From assembly GCF_016903815.1 (NCBI RefSeq), contig NZ_CP069973.1: a DNA stretch of 64,000 nt; one strand, 5' to 3'. The stretch comes from Escherichia coli (GTDB lineage Bacteria > Pseudomonadota > Gammaproteobacteria > Enterobacterales > Enterobacteriaceae). Below are positions 2,042-32,152 of the stretch, piece by piece. Below the pieces are notes generated by a model that saw nothing but the letters and a program-made list of their open reading frames with translations, searched no databases and was not told the origin of the DNA. Each line of letters opens with the position of its first letter. The stretch's first letter is position 1. Both the position numbers and the translations under genes were made by a program.

Positions 2042-2760
2042 CCGAGTTACCAATCGACGAAAACACACCGCGTATTTTGATCGTGGAAGATGAACCGAAG
2101 CTGGGACAGTTGCTCATTGATTATCTGCGTGCTGCGAGCTATGCGCCGACGCTTATCAGCCACGGCGATCAGGTACTGCCGTATGTGCGCCAGACACCAC
2201 CGGATCTGATCCTGTTGGATCTGATGCTCCCTGGCACCGATGGCTTGACGCTGTGCCGGGAAATTCGTCGTTTTTCTGACATTCCTATCGTGATGGTGAC
2301 GGCAAAAATAGAAGAGATCGACCGCCTGCTCGGACTGGAGATTGGCGCAGATGATTATATCTGTAAGCCGTACAGCCCACGGGAAGTGGTAGCGCGCGTC
2401 AAAACCATTTTGCGCCGTTGCAAACCGCAGCGTGAGTTGCAGCAACAGGATGCTGAAAGCCCGTTGATTATCGACGAAGGTCGTTTTCAGGCTTCATGGC
2501 GCGGTAAAATGCTTGACCTGACGCCTGCGGAATTTCGTCTGCTGAAAACGCTCTCTCATGAACCAGGAAAAGTGTTCTCCCGCGAGCAATTGCTCAATCA
2601 TCTTTATGACGACTACCGCGTAGTAACCGACCGCACCATCGACAGCCACATTAAAAACCTGCGCCGCAAGCTGGAATCTCTCGACGCCGAACAGTCCTTT
2701 ATCCGTGCCGTTTACGGCGTCGGTTACCGCTGGGAAGCCGACGCCTGCCGCATCGTTTAA
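2038..2760 (+). CDS. baeR: OmpR-family response regulator BaeR
   Basis: 240 aa. Receiver domain ('[10 protein letters not shown]', '[11 protein letters not shown]') plus winged-helix C-terminus ('GVGYRW'). Start overlaps the baeS stop. Confidence 0.95.
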
Positions 2761-2770
2761 CATTTTTACC

Positions 2771-2806
2771 TGCCGGAGAAGGCATTCACGCCGCATCCGG
2801 CAACAT
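2771..2806. repeat. REP-like palindromic unit downstream of baeR
   Basis: The reverse complement reads GCCGGATGCGGCGTGAATGCC, the typical E. coli REP core. Confidence 0.4.
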
Positions 2807-2939
2807 AATCCCACGCATGGTCAGCAAACTGACATTATCTCTCCGCCCTGGCAGGCACCAGAAAATCGCTCATACTTTAATCGGTAAACAGTCCTTTTAG
2901 ATGCTGTTTTCGATACGCAATTTCAATCAAGGAGTCATT

Positions 2940-3272
2940 ATGGCTGGTTGGTTTGAACTCAGTAAAAGCAGTGATAATCAATTTCGGTTTGTGCTAAAAG
3001 CGGGCAATGGTGAGACTATCCTTACCAGCGAGCTGTATACCTCAAAAGCCTCTGCGGAAAAGGGCATCGCGTCGGTGCGTAGCAACAGCCCGCAAGAAGA
3101 ACGCTATGAGAAAAAAACGGCAAGCAACGGCAAATTCTATTTCAATCTGAAAGCCGCTAATCATCAAATTATCGGCTCCAGCCAGATGTACGCCACCGCG
3201 CAATCTCGTGAAACCGGAATTGCCTCCGTTAAAGCCAATGGCACAAGCCAGACGGTGAAAGACAATACGTAA
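2940..3272 (+). CDS. yegP: YegP (UPF0339/DUF1508 tandem-repeat protein)
   Basis: ATG at 2940 is preceded by AAGGAG. The 110-aa product 'MAGWFELSKSSDNQFRFVLKAGNGE...' has an internal repeat ('FRFVLKAGNGE' / 'FYFNLKAANHQ'). The track ORF starts 13 codons earlier, which is probably too far upstream. Confidence 0.88.
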   Translation: MAGWFELSKSSDNQFRFVLKAGNGETILTSELYTSKASAEKGIASVRSNSPQEERYEKKTASNGKFYFNLKAANHQIIGSSQMYATAQSRETGIASVKANGTSQTVKDNT

Positions 3273-3419
3273 TTACGATGCCGGGCGTGGGTTGTTGGCG
3301 TCCGGCGCTTTACCAGCTCCCCCCTACAGCGCTACAATGCCCGCCCTTAAAGTGGGGGCACTCCCCTGGCCGCTTCATCAGGTGAAGCGGATCTGACCTG
3401 TCATCAGAACGAGAGAATT

Positions 3420-4781
3420 ATGTTTAAACCGGAACTCCTTTCCCCGGCGGGAACGCTGAAAAATATGCGTTACGCTTTCGCTTATGGCGCAGATGCTGTT
3501 TATGCGGGCCAGCCGCGTTACTCCCTGCGTGTGCGCAACAACGAATTTAACCACGAAAATCTTCAGCTCGGCATCAATGAAGCCCACGCGCTGGGGAAAA
3601 AGTTTTATGTCGTGGTCAACATTGCACCGCACAACGCCAAGCTGAAAACCTTTATCCGTGACCTGAAACCGGTGGTGGAAATGGGGCCGGATGCGCTGAT
3701 TATGTCTGATCCAGGGCTGATTATGCTGGTGCGCGAGCACTTCCCTGAAATGCCGATCCATCTCTCAGTACAGGCTAACGCCGTGAACTGGGCGACGGTG
3801 AAATTCTGGCAGCAAATGGGTCTGACCCGCGTGATCCTCTCTCGCGAACTGTCACTGGAAGAGATTGAAGAGATCCGCAATCAGGTGCCAGATATGGAGA
3901 TCGAAATCTTCGTTCACGGCGCGCTGTGCATGGCCTACTCCGGTCGCTGCCTGCTCTCTGGCTATATCAACAAGCGCGACCCGAACCAGGGCACCTGCAC
4001 CAACGCCTGCCGCTGGGAGTATAACGTCCAGGAAGGGAAAGAAGATGACGTCGGCAACATCGTACACAAGTACGAACCGATTCCGGTGCAAAACGTTGAA
4101 CCGACGCTGGGGATCGGCGCACCAACCGACAAAGTGTTTATGATCGAAGAAGCCCAGCGTCCGGGCGAGTATATGACCGCGTTTGAAGATGAGCACGGCA
4201 CTTACATCATGAACTCGAAAGATCTGCGCGCCATCGCCCATGTTGAACGCCTGACCAAAATGGGCGTGCATTCGCTGAAAATCGAAGGCCGTACCAAATC
4301 TTTCTACTATTGCGCACGCACCGCGCAGGTTTACCGTAAAGCTATCGATGACGCAGCTGCGGGAAAACCATTCGATACCAGCCTGCTGGAAACCCTGGAA
4401 GGTCTGGCGCATCGTGGCTATACCGAAGGTTTCCTGCGTCGTCATACTCACGACGATTATCAGAACTACGAATACGGTTATTCAGTTTCTGACCGCCAGC
4501 AGTTTGTTGGTGAGTTTACCAGTGAGCGCAAGGGCGACCTCGCGGCGGTAGCGGTGAAAAATAAATTCTCCGTTGGCGACAGCCTTGAGCTGATGACGCC
4601 GCAAGGGAACATTAACTTTACCCTTGAGCACATGGAAAACGCCAAAGGCGAAGCAATGCCGGTCGCACCGGGCGATGGTTATACTGTGTGGATCCCGGTG
4701 CCGCAGGATCTTGAGCTAAATTACGCGCTGCTGATGCGTAATTTCTCCGGGGAAACCACGCGTAACCCCCACGGTAAGTGA
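3420..4781 (+). CDS. yegQ: U32-family peptidase-like protein YegQ (TrhP)
   Basis: 453 aa. N-terminus 'MFKPELLSPAGTLKNMRYAFAYGADAVYAG' is typical of the U32 family. Synteny with yegP. Confidence 0.93.
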   Translation: MFKPELLSPAGTLKNMRYAFAYGADAVYAGQPRYSLRVRNNEFNHENLQLGINEAHALGKKFYVVVNIAPHNAKLKTFIRDLKPVVEMGPDALIMSDPGLIMLVREHFPEMPIHLSVQANAVNWATVKFWQQMGLTRVILSRELSLEEIEEIRNQVPDMEIEIFVHGALCMAYSGRCLLSGYINKRDPNQGTCTNACRWEYNVQEGKEDDVGNIVHKYEPIPVQNVEPTLGIGAPTDKVFMIEEAQRPGEYMTAFEDEHGTYIMNSKDLRAIAHVERLTKMGVHSLKIEGRTKSFYYCARTAQVYRKAIDDAAAGKPFDTSLLETLEGLAHRGYTEGFLRRHTHDDYQNYEYGYSVSDRQQFVGEFTSERKGDLAAVAVKNKFSVGDSLELMTPQGNINFTLEHMENAKGEAMPVAPGDGYTVWIPVPQDLELNYALLMRNFSGETTRNPHGK

Positions 4782-4865
4782 TTAATTTCGATTATTTTTC
4801 CCGGATGGAAAATTCTTAGAAACCGATCACATACAGCTGCATTTATTAAGGTTATCATCTGTTTC

Positions 4866-4952
4866 GCTGAAAAACATAACCCATAAAATGCTAGCTGTAC
4901 CAGGAACCACCTCCTTAGCCTGTGTAATCTCCCTTACACGGGCTTATTTTTT
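4866..4952 (+). ncRNA. cyaR: Hfq-dependent sRNA CyaR (RyeE)
   Basis: The 87-nt GCTGAAAAACATAACCCATAAAATGCTAGCTGTACCAGGAACCACCTCCTTAGCCTGTGTAATCTCCCTTACACGGGCTTATTTTTT matches CyaR as I recall it. It ends in a hairpin (CCCTTACACGGG) plus a T6 intrinsic terminator. Its last 27 nt are the prophage att core. Confidence 0.9.
4926..4952. repeat. att core copy, ogr-proximal (attR in P2 convention)
   Basis: AATCTCCCTTACACGGGCTTATTTTTT is identical to 38117-38143. Confidence 0.92.
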
Positions 4953-4992
4953 ACGCGTAACACAATGAAATAAAAGGATTTATTTCTGGTCA

Positions 4993-5011
4993 CGTCCACA
5001 CATTGACCACA
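4993..5011. promoter_or_regulatory. Candidate Int arm-type sites (CGTCCACA / TGACCACA, 11-bp spacing)
   Basis: Two related 8-mers are spaced one helical turn apart in the att arm. The same (T/C)G(T/A)CCACA pattern and spacing occur at 38010-38028 in the other arm. Confidence 0.35.
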
Positions 5012-5015
5012 TCGA

Positions 5016-5040
5016 CAAAAAAGCCCCTCGACTGAGGGGC
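5016..5040 (-). terminator. Intrinsic terminator downstream of ogr
   Basis: On the minus strand: GCCCCTCAGTCGAGGGGC hairpin followed by TTTTTT. Confidence 0.75.
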
Positions 5041-5053
5041 TTCCTGTTTGTAA

Positions 5054-5272
5054 TTACATCCACATAATTTGCTGCCCTGACGGCAACGGGTGCGGTCTTA
5101 CGGCGTGGACTTCTCCCGGCTTCACGATGTATCGCTGTACCGACTCATAAGTGATGAATGTGGCGCTGCAATTCACGTTCTGACACTGGTGATAACGCTC
5201 TTTTGTCGTGTCAGTGATATAGCGGCTTGTACGCGCATGTGCGGCATGCTGGCATAAAGGACAATGAAACAT
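5054..5272 (-). CDS. ogr: Late-gene transcription activator Ogr (zinc finger)
   Basis: 72 aa from 'MFHCPLCQHAAHARTSRYITDTTKERYHQCQNVNC...' with the CxxC...CxxxxC motif. Matches P2 Ogr/OgrK. The track ORF carries an unlikely N-terminal extension. Confidence 0.92.
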   Translation of the reverse strand: MFHCPLCQHAAHARTSRYITDTTKERYHQCQNVNCSATFITYESVQRYIVKPGEVHAVRPHPLPSGQQIMWM

Positions 5273-11985: not shown

Positions 11986-12579
11986 TCAATTATGTAAATC
12001 TTTTGTTTTATGTTCTTTAGCGTATTGTGACAACAAATGGCTATAGCGTTTAAGCAAAATATTAGAAAGATTAAGCTCATTCATGAAGTGTTCTTCTAAT
12101 AAGTAACCATCAATATCAACTTTAATATCATTACCACTTTTCATCTTCTGTAACGTAGATTTCACACGCTCCAGCAGGATGCTTTGCTCATGGTAATAGT
12201 CCATAAGAAGAGTAACATCCTCTTTATCAAGCTTACTTAATTCGCTGAAGTAGGATTTAAACACTTTATCAGTCTGGTTTAATGCAATCTGTAAGCGAGG
12301 CCCCCCTAATGATTTGACATTAATGGCAAAAGGCTCGCCAACAAAATGCTCCGAATTTTCGTCAAAGCCAATATATCTCGTTTTATCAAGAAAAGTGAGA
12401 GCGCGATGGTTATTAGCGATTTCATATGCAAACATTGTTCTGATACTGTCCCTCTCAGCCTCCATGCTTATATCATCACGGTGATTTGTATAAAATATAT
12501 TTCCAACAAAGAGAACCATAGCAAGAATCACTGAACTTGCCTCCCAGTTAATATTTTTAAATCGTCGCTTAGTAAACAT
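11986..12579 (-). CDS. Unknown membrane-anchored protein, cargo at the P2 Z/fun position
   Basis: 197 aa. ATG is preceded by AAGGTG. One N-terminal hydrophobic helix ('SSVILAMVLFVGNIFY'); the rest is soluble and Lys/Glu-rich. AT-rich (22 G+C in 12121-12180). I recognise no family. Confidence 0.7.
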   Translation of the reverse strand: MFTKRRFKNINWEASSVILAMVLFVGNIFYTNHRDDISMEAERDSIRTMFAYEIANNHRALTFLDKTRYIGFDENSEHFVGEPFAINVKSLGGPRLQIALNQTDKVFKSYFSELSKLDKEDVTLLMDYYHEQSILLERVKSTLQKMKSGNDIKVDIDGYLLEEHFMNELNLSNILLKRYSHLLSQYAKEHKTKDLHN

Positions 12580-12800: not shown

Positions 12801-13328
12801 TTATTGCGGCATTTCCGGCCATTCAGGATTTACAGGATCCACACGGCTGACCAGAACGCTGTAGCGTTCCCATGACTCCAGTCGTGCACGTTCCTCATCC
12901 GTCGCCATATTCAGCCTGACAGCGCGTTCCAGTGGCTGAATAACGCTTTCCGCTTCGGAAAGTAATGCGGCCTTTTGTGATTCTGCCTGTTGTTGCTGTT
13001 CATCTGCCGTATAAATCCGTTTAACCACAGCACCATCCTTAAACATCCATTTACCTGAGTCGTCAGCACGTCGGTTGGAGGTAATATCAGGAACCTCAAC
13101 AACGCTAAAACCTTCAGGGTTAAGCGTTGAAGCATCTCTGGTGATAGCGACAATAATATTATTTTCATCGTAAACAATCTTTATTGTGTCTGGCTGAAAG
13201 TTCTTCACTTCCTCATACCAGTTTTTTCCATCCTCAGAGTAAAGCCAGATAACTCCGTGTTTCTTTGTTAACTCATACTGTTCCAGTGTTTTAGCGTTAC
13301 CCGCTTTTATGTTCTTTAAGTGCATCAT
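12801..13328 (-). CDS. G: Tail fibre assembly chaperone G
   Basis: 175 aa, immediately downstream of H. P2 gpG-like. Confidence 0.88.
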
Positions 13329-16797: not shown

Positions 16798-17145
16798 TCA
16801 ACTCACAGGGATGGTTAATGAAAGTGGCTGGCCGGTGTCGTTGTGCTGGCCGGTTAACGTGACCGTCATTCGCCCGTCAAAACTGCGCTCAGTGGTGACG
16901 GATGACAGGGTGACGCGGGGTTCCCATTTCAGCACCGCCATGTAACAGGCGACCTTAATCTGCAACTCAAGCGCCGGGGTCTGCGGCTGGTCAATCATTG
17001 ATGCCAGCAACGAGCCGTAATCACGACGCATCACCCGTGAGCCGACCGGTGTGCGCAGGATATCGCCGATACTCTGGCTGATATGCTCAAGGTCAGTGAC
17101 AGTCAGGCCATCACTGCGATTCATTCCGAGATAACGCGCTGTCAT
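16798..17145 (-). CDS. W: Baseplate protein W (gp25-like)
   Basis: 115 aa. P2 gpW position. Confidence 0.9.
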   Translation of the reverse strand: MTARYLGMNRSDGLTVTDLEHISQSIGDILRTPVGSRVMRRDYGSLLASMIDQPQTPALELQIKVACYMAVLKWEPRVTLSSVTTERSFDGRMTVTLTGQHNDTGQPLSLTIPVS

Positions 17146-17771
17146 AAAGGACTCCCGGTTGTGCCGCCGCTGTCGCCGGGGTGTTTGTGGGTATGCAGTA
17201 CCTTACCGTTTGATGAGAGTTCACCGCCGGTGTGTTCAATGTTGCCGCGCATCGTCCCGCCCTTCTGCACTTCCAGCGTGCCGGTAGTCAGTTTGTTAGT
17301 GCAGACCACTTCTGGTGTGTCCAGGGTGACGCGGGTTGATGCTTTCACCGTGACCACTGGTACCGTGGCAGTAACAGAATCAGAAGCCGTCACGCTGGCC
17401 GTTTTAATTCCGCTTACCGTGAGTGCACTGGTTTCAGGTTCATACTCAATCACCGCCCCGTCAGGGAAACGGATATGCAGGGCATCCGCCGACGCAGACG
17501 GCGCAGGGTTATCGCCGGAATAAATCCCCGGCAGAACGAACGCCGTGTCGAGTTCACCGCCCACGGCCAGAATCAGCACCTGTTCCCCCACGGAAGGTGC
17601 CCACCATGTGCGCGAACGCCCAGCGCGATGGGTCAGCCACTGAAGCCAGTCGGTGCACATGCCGCCAGTCTGCACACGGCAGCGACCGGCATTAAGGTCG
17701 GTTTCGACGATAATGCCAGTGCGAATCATATTGCGTATAAAGCGAAGAATTTCATTGTATTGTGCATTCAT
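17142..17771 (-). CDS. V: Baseplate central spike protein V
   Basis: 209 aa from 'MNAQYNEILRFIRNMIRTGIIVETDLNAGRCRVQTGG...', P2 gpV-like. The track ORF has a 26-codon upstream extension that I reject. Confidence 0.88.
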   Translation of the reverse strand: MNAQYNEILRFIRNMIRTGIIVETDLNAGRCRVQTGGMCTDWLQWLTHRAGRSRTWWAPSVGEQVLILAVGGELDTAFVLPGIYSGDNPAPSASADALHIRFPDGAVIEYEPETSALTVSGIKTASVTASDSVTATVPVVTVKASTRVTLDTPEVVCTNKLTTGTLEVQKGGTMRGNIEHTGGELSSNGKVLHTHKHPGDSGGTTGSPL

Positions 17772-17795
17772 TCGATAATAATGATTCTGTACAAT
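17767..17795 (+). promoter_or_regulatory. Candidate sigma70 promoter for the orf30-position cargo gene
   Basis: TTCATT-N17-TACAAT, about 60 nt upstream of the ATG at 17858. Pattern match only. Confidence 0.3.
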
Positions 17796-17857
17796 CTCGA
17801 AGTAAATCACACCACGATTTCTGGTGCACAGAACAACAAGGGACAACAAAATCCATT

Positions 17858-18931
17858 ATGAGTACTTACTTTTTCTCGTCAGAAACAATGAAAGAATTGT
17901 TCAAAGATTATCTGGTCTTTTTGAACACGCTGACTCCCAGCACAAACTTTGAATCAAACAGAAACAAAATAATTGCTCAAGCAATAAACTTCATTTCCGA
18001 AAACCCTGAAGATTGGGACAAAAAATCCCAGTACAACATTGCTATGATTGGCGACACCTTTAAAAGTTTCTTAAGAGAAAAGGGGGAAGATAACAACAGC
18101 ATCAACCTTATATTCACTTGCTTTTTTAGATTTATCATTGAACCAAGCATTCTCTCTCCGGAAATAGAGTCTCACTTTTCACCACTAAGAACCATCAAGG
18201 ATTTTGCTCTGTATAACTATAATGAATTCGATGAGCGGAGCAGAGCACAGATAGACTTTTCTCTTAGAGAACTGCCATTAGCAATGGTTAAAGAAGTTTT
18301 AAGCTCCAGCAATGTTGACACATATAAAAAATACATTGATAGTTTAAACGAAGGGCGTCAATTTTTCGAAAAGTGCGACTCCTTCTTAAAGGAGCAACAT
18401 GCCAAAATAGAGTCAATTAAAGAGTCATTAAAAGGGTATGAGGTCGCATTTAATTTTGTTGGATTGTTTGATGGCTTTAATTCACTTGGCAAAAAGAAAG
18501 AAAGTGAAATCATGCTATCAAGAATAATTCTTATCATCTTGGCTATAATCATTCCCTCCCCGCTGATATACTATGGAATGCATAAATTACCAACTCTCGA
18601 AACGACAAATGCTGCCACATATTTTATGTCAGCACTACCTTTTGCATCAGTTACATTGATTTTCATGTATTACTTTAGAGTTGTACTGATAAATCATATA
18701 TCGTTACGAACTCAGATTATGCAAATAGAACTCAGAAAGAGCCTTTGTCAGTTCATTCAGAGTTATAGCGACTATTCCTCAGAGATAAGGAAAAACAATC
18801 CGGAAGCGCTTTCAAAATTCGAAGACGTAGTATTTTCAAACATCATGCTATCCGATGATAAGATACCATCTACATTTGATGGCATTGAGCAAATAGCATC
18901 GTTAATCAATTCATTAAAAAATGGAAAGTAA
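17858..18931 (+). CDS. Unknown protein with two C-terminal TM helices, cargo at the P2 orf30 position (antisense to the late operon)
   Basis: 357 aa from ATG 17858 (the track ORF begins at an upstream GTG inside V). Hydrophobic helices 'IMLSRIILIILAIIIPSPLIYYGM' and 'AATYFMSALPFASVTLIFMYYFRVVLI'. AT-rich (20 G+C in 18421-18480). Has its own terminator. Confidence 0.75.
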   Translation: MSTYFFSSETMKELFKDYLVFLNTLTPSTNFESNRNKIIAQAINFISENPEDWDKKSQYNIAMIGDTFKSFLREKGEDNNSINLIFTCFFRFIIEPSILSPEIESHFSPLRTIKDFALYNYNEFDERSRAQIDFSLRELPLAMVKEVLSSSNVDTYKKYIDSLNEGRQFFEKCDSFLKEQHAKIESIKESLKGYEVAFNFVGLFDGFNSLGKKKESEIMLSRIILIILAIIIPSPLIYYGMHKLPTLETTNAATYFMSALPFASVTLIFMYYFRVVLINHISLRTQIMQIELRKSLCQFIQSYSDYSSEIRKNNPEALSKFEDVVFSNIMLSDDKIPSTFDGIEQIASLINSLKNGK

Positions 18932-18936
18932 TGATA

Positions 18937-18965
18937 AAAGGCCAATAACTGGCCTTTTATTTATT
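18937..18965 (+). terminator. Intrinsic terminator of the orf30-position cargo gene
   Basis: AAAAGGCCAATAACTGGCCTTTTATTTATT: GGCC stem, loop, then a T-rich tail. Confidence 0.7.
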
Positions 18966-19033
18966 AACATGAAAATTCAAAATAAATTATGCTAATCAAT
19001 TGATTTCTATCTTATATTCTCAGATGATTAAAT

Positions 19034-19486
19034 CTAACGATTCAGGTGAGCCAGGATAATCTCTTCAATCATCTGCACATCCTCACCGGTAAAGCCAAGC
19101 AGAGGACGCGCCGGATAATCAATTTTCTTACCGTCTTTCCGGGTTTCTTCCGACAGACCGAACTGATGCACACTGGCGATTTTCGGTGACTTCCCGCCGT
19201 AAAACTCCATTGATGCCTGTTCAGGGCTGGCGCGGATATGCAAAAAACGACTGGTGATAAGTTTCGCAAACATTTTTCGCTTAACGCGACCGGTCTTTTT
19301 TCTGGCGCTCTGCTGCTGGCGTGGTGCGTAGGGTGTGCCGTCCGGGGCTTTCTGTGCCATCACCCGACGCTGCTGACTCTGCCGCAGACGTTTCGCCAGT
19401 TCTGCACTCAGTCGCCGACGCCCAGACGGTGACAGCGATTCAATCAGTCCGGTCAGCCGGTCTTCAAAACGCTTAAACTCATTCAT
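19034..19486 (-). CDS. S: Tail completion protein S
   Basis: 150 aa. P2 gpS position and sequence. Confidence 0.9.
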   Translation of the reverse strand: MNEFKRFEDRLTGLIESLSPSGRRRLSAELAKRLRQSQQRRVMAQKAPDGTPYAPRQQQSARKKTGRVKRKMFAKLITSRFLHIRASPEQASMEFYGGKSPKIASVHQFGLSEETRKDGKKIDYPARPLLGFTGEDVQMIEEIILAHLNR

Positions 19487-28596: not shown

Positions 28597-30021
28597 ATGG
28601 TTTCGTCAAACGTCAAAATAGCAGCATTTCCAGCAAAAAGATTCTTTGTTGAGATGCTCACCCGAGATATTGAGTTGTCTGACTCAATTCTAGATTTACT
28701 AGATAACTGCCTAGATGGTGTATTAAGAAAAAACAATTTCACTCCAGAGCAAACCTTCGGTAAATCAGACGTTTACAAGGGTTACTATGCTCATATTGAA
28801 TTTGATGAGAATAGTTTCAGAATAACTGATAATTGCGGAGGTATTCCAGCAAAACTTGCGGAAAGCTATGCGTTTAGGTTGGGTAGACCTGCAGAACGTG
28901 AGGCGGATGATCTCCCGACAATTGGTGTATATGGTATCGGAATGAAACGAGCGATTTTCAAAATGGGGACATCTGCTCAGATTTTAAGCAAAACTGAAAA
29001 CGAACAATTTTCAGTTACCATTTCTCCTGAATGGATGGCTGATGATGAAAACTGGTCTTTGGAGTTAGAGCGAAATAATGTTGACTTAAACGAAACAGGC
29101 GTCAGCATCCAAATTAACAATTTAAGGAAAGATATTAAAGCATCCCTATCAAAGGATCGTGGCTTTGAAGAAGTTTTGATTAATATCATAGCAAATCATT
29201 ATAGTTTAATCATTAAAAAAGGGTTTGAGGTTAAAGTAAATGGATGTATTGTTAAGCCAAATAGCACCAATTTAATATTTGATGAAGAAGCCATTAAAGG
29301 CAATACCGACGGCATTGCTCCTTATGTATATAAAAATAATTCAAATGGAGTTTCAATTAAAGTTGCAGTTGGATTTTATCGTAACTTGCCTAGTGAGGAA
29401 GAAGAAGAGAATTTATTATCAGGCCGTTCCACAACAGAAAAAGCTGGTTGGACAATTATATGCAATGATCGTGTAGTCCTACATGCGGATAAAACCAAGC
29501 TTACAGGTTGGGGAGAAGCTGGAGTTCCACAATATCATACTCAATTCATCGGAATTTCTGGTGTTGTTATTTTCACATCATCAAATGCTGAATTACTACC
29601 TATCACTACAACTAAACGAGGTGTTGATGGTAACTCTGAGCTATATCTTTCTACTAAAGATTTTATGCGCGAGGGTTTAAAATTCTTCACGGACTTTACC
29701 AACAAATGGAAAAGTAACGCAGAGGAAAGAAAGCAAATTATTAATACTGCATCCAATATGGTTTCAACAACTGAGGTCGACTTTACTAAATCAATTCCTA
29801 GAGAAAACTGGTCGAACGTTCGACGTTCAATAGGAGGAGAAGTTTTCAAACCGAAGCTACCAATGCCTCGGGATTCGGATCCATTACGTCAGATAAAATT
29901 TAGCCGTAGACATAGTGAAATAAAACTGGTGTCAGAGTTTCTCTTTGATGATGCAACTCAACCACCAACAGAGGTTGGTCAATATTGTTTTGATGAATTT
30001 CTAAAAAAGGCTAAACAATGA
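28597..30021 (+). CDS. GHKL-superfamily (MORC/MutL-like, HATPase_c_3-type) ATPase, cargo gene 1
   Basis: 474 aa. ATG is preceded by AAGGA. Bergerat-fold motifs occur in order: N-box 'ILDLLDNCLDG', G1 'RITDNCGGIP', G2 'IGVYGIGMKRAIFKMG'. The C-terminal ~330 aa is unassigned. AT-rich. Confidence 0.8.
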   Translation: MVSSNVKIAAFPAKRFFVEMLTRDIELSDSILDLLDNCLDGVLRKNNFTPEQTFGKSDVYKGYYAHIEFDENSFRITDNCGGIPAKLAESYAFRLGRPAEREADDLPTIGVYGIGMKRAIFKMGTSAQILSKTENEQFSVTISPEWMADDENWSLELERNNVDLNETGVSIQINNLRKDIKASLSKDRGFEEVLINIIANHYSLIIKKGFEVKVNGCIVKPNSTNLIFDEEAIKGNTDGIAPYVYKNNSNGVSIKVAVGFYRNLPSEEEEENLLSGRSTTEKAGWTIICNDRVVLHADKTKLTGWGEAGVPQYHTQFIGISGVVIFTSSNAELLPITTTKRGVDGNSELYLSTKDFMREGLKFFTDFTNKWKSNAEERKQIINTASNMVSTTEVDFTKSIPRENWSNVRRSIGGEVFKPKLPMPRDSDPLRQIKFSRRHSEIKLVSEFLFDDATQPPTEVGQYCFDEFLKKAKQ

Positions 30022-31010
30022 GTACTGGCGGAAGCATCCCATATCATTTGCGGCAAAACAAAGCCATTGAAAGGAATCTATTTATAGAATCCCTAAGAAG
30101 GTTAAACAATTATACAAACATATCCGAATATGTATATATAGGATTCGGGGGGCCTTTCCTCGAAGATTTCAAACAAATTCATAATTTGTTAAAAGTGACT
30201 AAAATGATATCTATCGAAGGAGATAAAAATGTCCATTGCCGACAACAGTTTAACAAACCATTATCTTGCATAAATTTGGGTGATACCCCAGAAATGAGCG
30301 GAGACTTCATCAATCGCTATAACTTTGACGATAAAACGATCATATGGTTAGATTATGCAACGCCTTCAGACTTAAATGCTCAGTTAAATGAAATAGTTAA
30401 TTTGGTTACAAAGCTAAAACCCAAAGACATTTTTAAGATCACTTTAAATGCAAACCCTGAAGCCTTGGGAAAAAACCCGAGCGAACGAGATCCAAGAGCA
30501 TATAGATTTCAAAAGATAAACGATATTTTGACTCAAGATTTTTTACCACCGAATGCAGTAGTCGAAGATGTCGGATTTAAAAAATACCCTATGCTCCTAG
30601 TTAATGCTATGAGACGCGCAATAGGGCATGGATTAAAAGGTCGAAATGACATAAGAATACATCCATTAACTTCTTTCGTTTATAAAGATGGCCAACAGAT
30701 GGTTACTTTAACAGCTATCGTTCTTGAAAACACTGATACAGAAGAAGCTAAATTTATTGATAATTCCAGAATCAAGAATTGGCCATTTTATGATGGGAAG
30801 TGGAGTAATCCTAAAAATATAAACGTCCCTGCTATGTCTTTAAAAGAAAGGATACATATTGAATCTTTATTACCCGAAGCTTCAGTAGAAAACATCCATG
30901 AAACTCTAGGGTTTTACATTGGCTCCACTCCTTCTGGAGCCAACTCCGATCTAAGTAATTTTATCGAATACTACAAGGTCGTTCCATGGTATTCAAAGAT
31001 TCTTTTTTAA
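30018..31010 (+). CDS. Unknown 330-aa partner protein, translationally coupled to the GHKL ATPase, cargo gene 2
   Basis: ATGA start/stop overlap at 30018-30021. Glycine-rich 'VYIGFGGPF', then 'ISIEGD' and 'IIWLDYATP', loosely Rossmann/methyltransferase-fold-like. I see no nuclease motif. Confidence 0.7.
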   Translation: MSTGGSIPYHLRQNKAIERNLFIESLRRLNNYTNISEYVYIGFGGPFLEDFKQIHNLLKVTKMISIEGDKNVHCRQQFNKPLSCINLGDTPEMSGDFINRYNFDDKTIIWLDYATPSDLNAQLNEIVNLVTKLKPKDIFKITLNANPEALGKNPSERDPRAYRFQKINDILTQDFLPPNAVVEDVGFKKYPMLLVNAMRRAIGHGLKGRNDIRIHPLTSFVYKDGQQMVTLTAIVLENTDTEEAKFIDNSRIKNWPFYDGKWSNPKNINVPAMSLKERIHIESLLPEASVENIHETLGFYIGSTPSGANSDLSNFIEYYKVVPWYSKILF

Positions 31011-32112
31011 CTTTTAAACAGTAATCGTATAAAGGTAATAGCATAGCCTCAGCCACAAGCGGACTAACGCTATTACCTATCTGTCTAAAACTGTGCCACT
31101 TTGTAGGATGAAAACGGAACCAATCAGGAAACCCTTGTAACCTAGCTGCTTCACGAGGAGTTATCACCCTAGCTTGAGTAGGGTGAATTGGCCTAACGGC
31201 CTGATAACTCCCCTTGTCACTTCCTGTACCTGCTCTCAAAGTTGGACAAAAACCGTTAGGATTGAGTCGTTGTGATCTCGAAATCTTATCAGTTTCACCG
31301 AATGAAAGTTGTCTATATCTCCTGAGCACTTCCTCCGAATGAGCTGTACCTAAAAAGCCAGATACCAATCCTTTCTTTAAATTTTGAATGGATTCTGCAT
31401 CACCTACACCATTTGGTATATGTCCCCAAAGTCGCTCATAATAGTAACCATCTTTATCCATTTTTACTGAACGCCAGCCTTGCTCCTCTGTCTGCCACTC
31501 TTTTCTTATAGTTCGCGGTAATCCGTAGAGTGCATCTTTGACAAGAGTCTGCTCTATTATATTTTTAGGAAAAAAATCAGATTCTTTTAACTGATTAATA
31601 AAACCTCTTTTAAAACCCATGAAAAATATTCGTGTCCGTGTCGTAGGTGCTCCATAATTTGAAGCATTAACCCTTATTGGATGTAATAAACAATAGCCAT
31701 CTCTAACTAAAGAAAATGCTTCTTCTCTTACTGGATTATATTTCTCACCCATAATTCCTGGAACATTCTCTGCCAAAAAACAAATTGGAGATAACTCACT
31801 TACCAACCTAAAAAAATGAATATACAATTCATTTCTTGTATCATTGGCATTCCTTTTTCCAATGGTGCTAAATCCTTGGCAAGGTGGACCACCAATAACG
31901 CAATCAATGTCCTTTACAGCACATGCAGACAAAATATCTTTTGCTGTAAGCGAGCAGACATCCCGATGCAAATGTGTTGATTTTGGGAAGTTTAACTCAT
32001 GTGAAAAAATAGCATGTTTATCCAGTTCAACAGCTCCAACCAAGTTGAAACCGGCTCGAGTTGCCCCTAAGCTTAAACCGCCAACTCCAGAGAATAAATC
32101 AACTACATTCAT
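30961..32112 (-). CDS. C5 cytosine-specific DNA methyltransferase, cargo gene 3
   Basis: 383 aa from ATG 32112 (the track ORF begins at a TTG two codons upstream). Motifs I 'DLFSGVGGLS', IV 'GGPPCQGFS', VI 'ENVPG', VIII 'TRTRIFF', X 'QIGNSVSP'. A long variable region lies between VIII and IX. Confidence 0.9.
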   Translation of the reverse strand: MNVVDLFSGVGGLSLGATRAGFNLVGAVELDKHAIFSHELNFPKSTHLHRDVCSLTAKDILSACAVKDIDCVIGGPPCQGFSTIGKRNANDTRNELYIHFFRLVSELSPICFLAENVPGIMGEKYNPVREEAFSLVRDGYCLLHPIRVNASNYGAPTTRTRIFFMGFKRGFINQLKESDFFPKNIIEQTLVKDALYGLPRTIRKEWQTEEQGWRSVKMDKDGYYYERLWGHIPNGVGDAESIQNLKKGLVSGFLGTAHSEEVLRRYRQLSFGETDKISRSQRLNPNGFCPTLRAGTGSDKGSYQAVRPIHPTQARVITPREAARLQGFPDWFRFHPTKWHSFRQIGNSVSPLVAEAMLLPLYDYCLKVKKESLNTMERPCSIR

Positions 32113-32152
32113 ATTCAAATAACCATGCTAAAGATTCAACTAACGATCATGT

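Follow-up and report, generated by a model that had tools for sequence, protein, structure and literature searches.

The junction between the S and V tail genes of P2-like phages has been known to vary since orf30, a non-essential gene that the P2 annotation places between the two, and exclusion by membrane-acting products of prophage morons is likewise already known. Among the morons of P2 itself, old, tin, and fun serve in exclusion, and the P2 hotspots are rich in defense systems (PMC9122126, PMC9519451, PMC13586616). Here we describe a gene for a 357-residue predicted membrane protein, hereafter the moron, that lies between gpV and gpS in a P2-like prophage of Escherichia coli. The window, by which we mean the whole 64,000-nucleotide stretch that was analyzed (contig NZ_CP069973.1 of assembly GCF_016903815.1), is chromosomal and contains an apparently complete prophage of this type at roughly 5.3 to 38 kb. 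The moron is a functional gene carried in a self-contained AT-rich cassette within the gpS/gpV accessory slot of this prophage, and its product is a member of a very large protein family that is horizontally mobile, encoded by single genes, and fixed in its build.

In several respects the moron resembles P2 orf30. Both occupy the S/V slot in antisense orientation, both are single genes with a G+C content of about 34 to 35%, both have the O-operon terminator downstream, and both encode products with hydrophobic segments. An earlier interpretation made from the letters of the DNA (the sequence-only reading) had assigned the gene to the orf30 moron position, and the P2 annotation, with the same slot and the same orientation, bears this out. 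That reading missed that the moron is unrelated to Orf30, and that the swapped cassette takes in the beginning of gpV (≈13 codons). The product of orf30 is 261 residues long versus 357 for the moron protein, and its hydrophobic segments are placed differently. Sequence or profile similarity between the two is absent, with a best BLASTP E-value of 1.4 and an hhalign probability of 0.1% for the family profile. The two cassettes also differ at their gpV side, where the orf30 cassette leaves the start of gpV intact, whereas the moron cassette replaces the first ≈13 codons.

The moron lies in an AT-rich cassette

The cassette comprises the following features, given in window coordinates.

17858 to 18931, plus strand: coding sequence of the 357-residue membrane protein, including the stop codon at 18929 to 18931; from the list of open reading frames (ORFs) and the translation, a member of PHROG 9373
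18937 to 18965, bidirectional: intrinsic terminator identified by folding, common to the moron (plus strand) and, probably, to the gpS end of the O late operon (minus strand)
18966 to 19033, no strand: AT-rich spacer between the terminator and the gpS stop codon, the left edge of the cassette; from alignment to empty junctions and to P2 and from the G+C profile
17772 to 17857, no strand: divergent control region of 86 bp between the gpV start and the moron start, from the sequence
17727 to 17771, minus strand: AT-rich first ≈13 to 15 codons of gpV, part of the swapped cassette; from the G+C content and a comparison of V N termini

The moron is flanked by gpV (17142 to 17771) and gpS (19034 to 19486), which RefSeq labels baseplate assembly protein V and virion morphogenesis protein S. 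Both are on the minus strand, so that the moron is antisense to the late operons. The G+C content over 17772 to 19033 is 0.34, compared with 0.57 for gpV and 0.53 for gpS, and positions 18421 to 18480 contain exactly 20 G+C, in agreement with the AT-rich insert, transcribed against the late operon between V and S, that the sequence-only reading had described. The longest possible ORF would begin at a GTG codon at 17762, and the RefSeq (PGAP) start of the protein, WP_223479977.1, is the second ATG at 17888, ten codons later, giving 347 residues. Because Phe6 is invariant in the family alignment and homologs align from residues 1 to 5, the ATG at 17858 is a better start than that at 17888. The 1.4-kb stretch is 100% identical in many RefSeq E. 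coli chromosomes, and the moron is found in 59 of the 5426 complete E. coli genomes (≈1%).

The clean intrinsic terminator proposed at 18937 to 18965 (AAAGGCCAATAACTGGCCTTTTATTTATT) stood up to analysis. Its hairpin has a folding energy of −16.2 kcal/mol on the plus strand and −14.3 kcal/mol on the minus strand (z = −5.7 and −4.3, respectively), none of the shuffled sequences folds as well, and a terminator scan matched the same positions on the minus strand. The hairpin probably also terminates the O operon downstream of gpS, as the P2 annotation has it, with the terminator of that operon at the equivalent place. Of the features by which prophage morons are recognized, the moron shows its own terminator, a deviant G+C content (0.34 versus 0.53 to 0.57), and presence or absence among close relatives.

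The two edges of the cassette are placed differently with respect to the flanking genes. Divergence from the empty junctions and from P2 begins immediately past the gpS stop codon; on the other side, divergence from the empty form starts only within gpV. The first 45 nucleotides of gpV have a G+C content of 0.31 and the next 90 nucleotides one of 0.59. Five other phages with the moron were compared, and in four of them (two from Citrobacter and one each from Yersinia and Cronobacter) V has an N terminus like that in the window (MNAQYNEILRFIRN). The corresponding sequence is MNTLANIQELARALRN in P2 and MNIPANINELARALRN in the Kosakonia phage (L006), the P2-like exception. Judged from these comparisons, the exchanged unit consists of the terminator, the moron, the divergent control region of 86 bp, and the start of V (≈13 codons), so that the accessory cassette brings along both a V 5′ end and a V promoter region of its own. 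This points to cassette exchange by allelic replacement, through recombination in the flanking tail genes, and not to site-specific insertion.

The control region must, by prediction, accommodate both the V late promoter (minus strand) and the promoter of the moron (plus strand). In an alignment across the homolog-bearing phages it is poorly conserved, and inspection by eye yielded only weak promoter candidates, such as TTCATT-17 nt-TACAAT at 17767 to 17795. An inverted repeat at 17808 to 17828 (TGCACCAGAAATCGTGGTGTG on the minus strand) was scored as terminator-like by the scan; from its position, it might be part of the V late promoter.

Two moron alleles that differ at 78 nucleotides have a ratio of nonsynonymous to synonymous substitution rates (dN/dS) of 0.13, with 0.15 in the N-terminal half and 0.07 in the C-terminal half, and the moron is a real gene under purifying selection. 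In one allele (L151), 22 of the 27 substitutions fall within residues 1 to 197. One of the 10 close alleles (L125, from IMG/VR) has a premature stop codon, E138*, an instance of occasional pseudogenization.

The gpS/gpV slot among P2-like phages

The junction was examined in 79 close relatives, taken from IMG/VR and with a gpS that is at least 99% identical. An empty junction of 81 bp is present in 53 of them, orf30 alleles occupy the junction in 13 (956 bp, with one of 1015 bp), the moron occupies it in nine (1266 bp), and a third gene is found in two (L095 and L104; 1065 bp). This third cargo encodes a soluble protein of 268 to 278 residues, is antisense with a G+C content of 33 to 34%, and has no Pfam or PADLOC match. 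All cargoes of the slot are antisense and have a G+C content of 33 to 37%, and the slot behaves like a small hotspot. With 53 of the 79 slots empty, the moron is dispensable for the phage.

All but one of the enterobacterial homologs that we looked up lie in this same slot, as listed here with their sequence identities.

Citrobacter homologs: gpS/gpV slot, antisense, 50% and 36% identity
Kosakonia homolog: gpS/gpV slot, antisense, 40% identity
Yersinia homolog: gpS/gpV slot, antisense, 37% identity
Cronobacter homolog: gpS/gpV slot, antisense, 36% identity
Erwinia homologs: gpS/gpV slot, antisense, 35 to 39% identity
Pectobacterium homolog: gpS/gpV slot, antisense, 36% identity

The exception is Buttiauxella, in which the homolog is a lone chromosomal insertion. 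Two isolated, viable P2-like phages of Yersinia carry a homolog in the gpS/gpV slot. The moron alleles are far more diverged than gpV (63 to 83% identical) and gpJ (70 to 85%) of the same phages.

Further insertions are seen around the slot in some of these genomes. In Pectobacterium (L017, 7097 to 7729, minus strand), an extra ORF of 210 residues lies on the late-gene strand between the moron and gpS, so that the slot can hold two genes. Three P2-like Yersinia prophages (L008 to L010) have a further insertion of ≈2.7 kb between gpW and gpV, at about 2500 to 5230, which contains a toxin-antitoxin pair of the RelB / YafQ-ParE type and several small ORFs.

A large family of hypothetical proteins

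The moron protein matches the profile of PHROG 9373, a phage protein family annotated without a function, with an E-value of 2.6e-134 and 449 bits (residues 13 to 356 on profile positions 7 to 387 of 388). A word-indexed protein search returned 349 relatives, all of them named hypothetical. A profile search of 1.84 billion cluster representatives (50% identity) found 928 clusters at E ≤ 0.001, 665 of which remain at E ≤ 1e-30, and nearly all are about 350 to 370 residues long and match from end to end. When one genome per GTDB species is considered, the family is found in Gammaproteobacteria and Betaproteobacteria, Campylobacterota, Desulfobacterota, Nitrospirales, and Bacteroidota. The sequence-only reading had recognized no family for this protein; it was right in that no characterized family matches, and it missed that the protein belongs to PHROG 9373 and to a family of about 900 clusters across several phyla.

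A Pfam scan of 132 diverse members gave coiled-coil and transmembrane (TM) noise only, such as DUF5367 in 10 members, DUF2207_C in eight, and DUF6161 in two (E = 0.0018). Sequence searches of the PDB, both with the moron protein and with the family profile, returned nothing significant. The family is unmentioned in the literature on P2 hotspots, which treats old/tin and Z/fun (PMC9122126, PMC9519451, 10.1101/2024.10.15.618418, PMC13586616); one of these four papers pools everything downstream of gpL. As far as the libraries and literature examined show, the family is undescribed: it lacks a model in Pfam, NCBIfam, or PADLOC, and none of its members has been named or solved structurally.

Predicted architecture and conservation of the moron protein

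The protein divides into four parts.

17858 to 18307, plus strand: N-terminal all-helical domain, residues 1 to 150, predicted to be cytoplasmic, the variable part of the family; from AlphaFold and sequence identity
18308 to 18505, plus strand: stalk helix, residues 151 to 216, ending in the juxtamembrane motif AFNFVGLxxGFxxLxxxK; from AlphaFold and the alignment
18506 to 18691, plus strand: membrane hairpin, residues 217 to 278, with TM1 at 217 to 240, a 12-residue loop, and TM2 at 253 to 278; from hydropathy and charges
18692 to 18928, plus strand: C-terminal region, residues 279 to 357 (79 residues), predicted to be cytoplasmic, the most conserved part; from sequence identity and invariant residues

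AlphaFold with a deep alignment gave a confident all-α model, with a mean predicted local distance difference test score (pLDDT) of 89.6 and a predicted template modeling score (pTM) of 0.59; an earlier AlphaFold model was all-α as well. The helical, soluble N-terminal region and the two strongly hydrophobic helices of the sequence-only reading are both recovered, as is its C-terminal tail, which measures 79 residues where about 70 had been given. The pLDDT of the N-domain is 85 to 98 per 10-residue block, with at least 94 in 13 of the 15 blocks, and its helices span residues 9 to 149. Residues 151 to 231 form a single helix of 81 residues whose last third is the first membrane helix. This is followed by a helix at 233 to 246, a short loop, and a 62-residue return helix (252 to 313) that starts as TM2. 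The C-terminal end adds two more helices and a lower-confidence linker around the invariant KIPSTFDG motif. Overall, the modeled protein has a helical head and a long helical hairpin whose tip is hydrophobic. Kyte-Doolittle hydropathy peaks at 2.4 (about 217 to 240) and 1.8 (about 253 to 278). Because basic residues border both membrane helices on the large-domain side and the loop between them has only 12 residues, the positive-inside rule predicts an N-in/C-in topology, with both large parts of the protein in the cytoplasm.

Conservation is distributed very unevenly along this architecture. Pairwise identity is 23 to 30% in the N-domain, 22 to 25% in the stalk, 34 to 42% in the juxtamembrane and membrane part, and 55 to 67% in the cytoplasmic C-region (residues 279 to 345). 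Across the 132 sequences, N199, F200, V201, L203, G206, F207, and K214 are invariant or nearly so, and Y271, F273, R274, and L277 are conserved in the hairpin. The invariant residues of the C-region are Q289, R293, F299, Y303, F321, F326, and G342, and its conserved stretches are QIELRKSLCQFIQSY...KFEDVIFSNIM...KIPSTFDGIEQ. Some distant homologs, from Acinetobacter, Moraxella, Pasteurella, and Providencia, are detectably similar only from about residue 110 to 180 onward, with their length and build unchanged. No informative domain fusions were found among the distant homologs, all of which have the same build or are truncated remnants.

Homologs in other mobile elements and genomes

The 110-kb circular Klebsiella phage pJN2-26 encodes a full-length homolog of 388 residues (L159, 5572 to 6738; hhalign probability 99.8%, E = 3.7e-30). 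As in the P2-like prophage, the gene stands alone; it is antisense to all of its neighbors, lies between replication genes, and has a G+C content of 34% versus 47%. By tblastn, there are also copies in three further Klebsiella phage records, and 223 Klebsiella plasmid records with a size of about 110 kb, putative phage-plasmids of the SSU5 type by their appearance, have one as well. Curing of the SSU5-like Klebsiella plasmid p2 (CP085480) raised phage plating by 10 to 100 fold, an effect of the whole 110-kb plasmid that cannot be assigned to one gene (PMC8969562).

Other mobile settings include an integrase/AlpA/primase island in Sedimenticola and an element with a D5 primase and a resolvase, where the homolog adjoins a putAbiC gene; hhalign found no relation between the family and this neighboring protein. 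In most non-enteric genomes, the homolog is a solitary insertion. Its G+C content is below that of the flanks in 46 of 50 non-P2 loci, by a mean of 0.13 and up to 0.26, so that the gene is foreign almost everywhere it is found. Temperate phages and other integrative elements are the preferred carriers of the family.

Clustering of the four genes on either side at 67 loci revealed no recurring partner gene, which agrees with the single-gene moron of the sequence-only reading. Outside P2-like prophages, the recurring neighbor clusters reach at most nine and six loci. The commonest Pfam families among the immediate neighbors are response regulators, histidine kinases, and ABC transporters. By raw count, a few of 98 immediate neighbors have strong single defense matches (PDC-S20, HEC-06, PDC-S35, dGTPase, and a type I S subunit).

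Possible roles of the moron protein

We tentatively favor the reading that the moron protein is a stand-alone inner-membrane conflict protein, most likely an anti-phage protein of the abortive, membrane-effector form. The prophage or other mobile element would express it for its own benefit and that of the host, and the protein would act alone at the inner membrane, the likeliest modes being anti-phage abortive infection or exclusion. Recognition of infection, through a cue in the cytoplasm or on the inner side of the membrane, would fall to the variable N-domain. The conserved module of juxtamembrane segment, hairpin, and C-tail would then change state, probably by oligomerizing, and in its changed state it would permeabilize or depolarize the membrane or halt infection in some other way. 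Support comes from the purifying selection on the gene and the size of its family, from its recurrence as a solitary, foreign unit in temperate elements, with the moron signature repeated in two unrelated temperate phage types, from the hotspot-like behavior of the slot, from the defense richness of P2 hotspots, from the confident model, and from the sensor/effector-like split between a diverged N-domain (23 to 30% identity) and a conserved C-tail (55 to 67%). The defense or exclusion factor proposed in the sequence-only reading is in keeping with the temperate-element context, the one putAbiC neighbor, and the exclusion roles of old, tin, and fun; the negative PADLOC result and the location of the gene outside phages, among housekeeping genes and not in defense islands, lend it no support. 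A role in defense or exclusion is plausible but circumstantial.

A number of results weigh against this anti-phage reading. None of the 5027 defense profiles of PADLOC-DB v2.0 matches the moron protein at E ≤ 10 (the defense-profile databases covered are none newer than 2023), and Foldseek, run with the earlier AlphaFold model as the query, found no match at E < 0.01 in the PDB or BFVD; these two checks had been suggested by the sequence-only reading. The fold searches return generic helical hairpins only, and scans with Pfam and NCBIfam gave nothing above noise. We saw no clear defense-island signal around the homologs, whose immediate neighbors are heterogeneous, and the genes two or three positions away in non-enteric genomes are mainly housekeeping genes. 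With heterogeneous neighbors, scattered defense matches, and a housekeeping context, classical guilt by association fails. No positive selection is seen in the N-domain (dN/dS of 0.15 between two alleles). The conserved residues contain no catalytic signature or known pore motif, so that the proposed effector mechanism is a guess from the architecture. The promoter that the sequence-only reading had supposed was not recovered, as a scan with the σ70 consensus gave no plus-strand site upstream of 17858. Foreign AT-rich genes, moreover, are frequently silenced in E. coli.

The working principle proposed here resembles that of the two-TM suicide effectors of defense systems (SLATT-type domains, the two-TM effectors of CBASS and retrons, and RexB-type membrane partners). 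Like these, the moron is mobile and its product would combine a cytoplasmic domain with a two-helix hairpin, and the two adjacent TM helices joined by a short loop (hydropathy; AlphaFold helices 217 to 246 and 252 to 278) recall the SLATT type in particular. Unlike these effectors, which normally act with a separate sensor or signal-making enzyme, the moron has no partner gene, and the most conserved part of its product is the cytoplasmic C-tail. None of Pfam SLATT_1 to SLATT_6 matches the moron protein at E ≤ 10, and SLATT or other effector profiles are absent from the 25 families most often hit by the 132 members (E ≤ 1). A second likeness is the head-stalk-hydrophobic-tip build shared with subunits of the ClyA/Yax-type α-pore-forming toxins (XaxA, PaxB, SmhB, and AhlC). 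The same four, PaxB, SmhB, AhlC, and XaxA, recur among the weak matches of three methods, with no significant structural or sequence similarity to the moron protein, and we take the resemblance as a lead only.

Of the alternatives, the one that survives best is a membrane function unrelated to phage defense, which we consider somewhat unlikely. Examples would be lysogenic conversion affecting the envelope or stress responses; interference with plasmids, conjugation, or colicins; or the control of phage lysis and lysogeny. Such a function would fit the lack of a defense-database match, the chromosomal copies whose neighbors are ordinary genes (two-component systems and ABC transporters among them), and the location next to lysis and tail genes in P2-like phages. 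The antisense orientation and the separate terminator, however, argue against a late or lysis role, the lack of any slot gene in 53 of the 79 close P2 relatives makes the moron dispensable for the phage, and the patchy, low-G+C, single-gene distribution over unrelated mobile elements is typical of conflict genes.

A bolder form of the anti-phage reading, which we regard as unlikely, is that the whole family constitutes an unrecognized single-protein immune effector, spread across several phyla, that has an α-pore-toxin-like build, with a helical head and a long coiled-coil hairpin ending in a hydrophobic tip, and acts from inside the cell. In that case, the variable head would sense phage infection and the conserved hairpin and C-tail would open the inner membrane, and P2-like phages would long have reserved a slot for the moron, which would be inherited together with the V promoter region.

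P22 SieA, T4 Imm, and HK97 gp15 block genome injection by incoming phages without killing the cell. SieA is an inner-membrane protein that is expressed independently of lytic genes (PMC10883804). That the moron protein likewise excludes superinfecting phages at entry, blocking injection from the inner membrane without cell death, is less probable still. Both the moron and these exclusion genes are single prophage genes for inner-membrane proteins (by prediction in the case of the moron), the moron is placed for reading independent of the late operons, and its carriers are viable temperate phages and phage-plasmid-like records. However, only about 12 residues of the moron protein are predicted to be periplasmic, with 215 and 79 residues in the cytoplasm. 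The protein is much larger than SieA, Imm, or gp15, is almost wholly cytoplasmic by prediction, has no detectable homology to them, and resembles no solved or curated protein in sequence. Whereas the known exclusion proteins are narrow in distribution and bound to phages, its family extends over several phyla, mostly outside recognizable prophages.

A divergent allele of P2 orf30, suggested by the shared slot and orientation, the similar AT content, and the hydrophobic segments of both products, is hardly credible and is already refuted at the sequence level by the BLASTP and profile comparisons and by the different length and arrangement of hydrophobic segments. Equally far-fetched is the idea of AT-rich junk DNA with a spurious ORF or what is left of a decaying gene; the one truncated allele in 10 and the negative σ70 scan could be read in its favor, and the dN/dS over 78 nucleotide differences, the length and architecture kept in hundreds of clusters, and the confident structure prediction already refute it.

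Were the favored anti-phage reading correct and the moron protective, it would represent a compact single-gene anti-phage system whose fold and conserved module are undescribed, found in about 1% of the complete genomes of E. coli and in many ≈110-kb Klebsiella plasmid records with the look of phage-plasmids, and ranging from Proteobacteria to Bacteroidota. The gpS/gpV junction would then join old/tin and Z/fun as the third accessory slot with a function in P2-like phages, and the 30-year-old question of what orf30-type genes do would have a first clue. If not defensive, the family would still be among the larger unannotated membrane-protein families of temperate phages.

Other accessory genes of the prophage

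Two further accessory slots of the prophage in the window are also occupied. In the Z/fun slot, after the tail-fiber assembly gene at 12801 to 13328, an ORF of 197 residues (11986 to 12579, minus strand) has no Pfam or PADLOC match. The old/tin hotspot, between portal Q and gpA (28597 to 32118), holds three genes. One encodes a 474-residue GHKL-type ATPase (HATPase_c_3, E = 2.6e-8) and another a 330-residue protein of PF20553, a "putative O-methyltransferase" (E = 4.6e-85), both without a PADLOC match; the third, on the other strand, encodes a C5 cytosine DNA methylase (PADLOC MTase_II, E = 7.5e-100).

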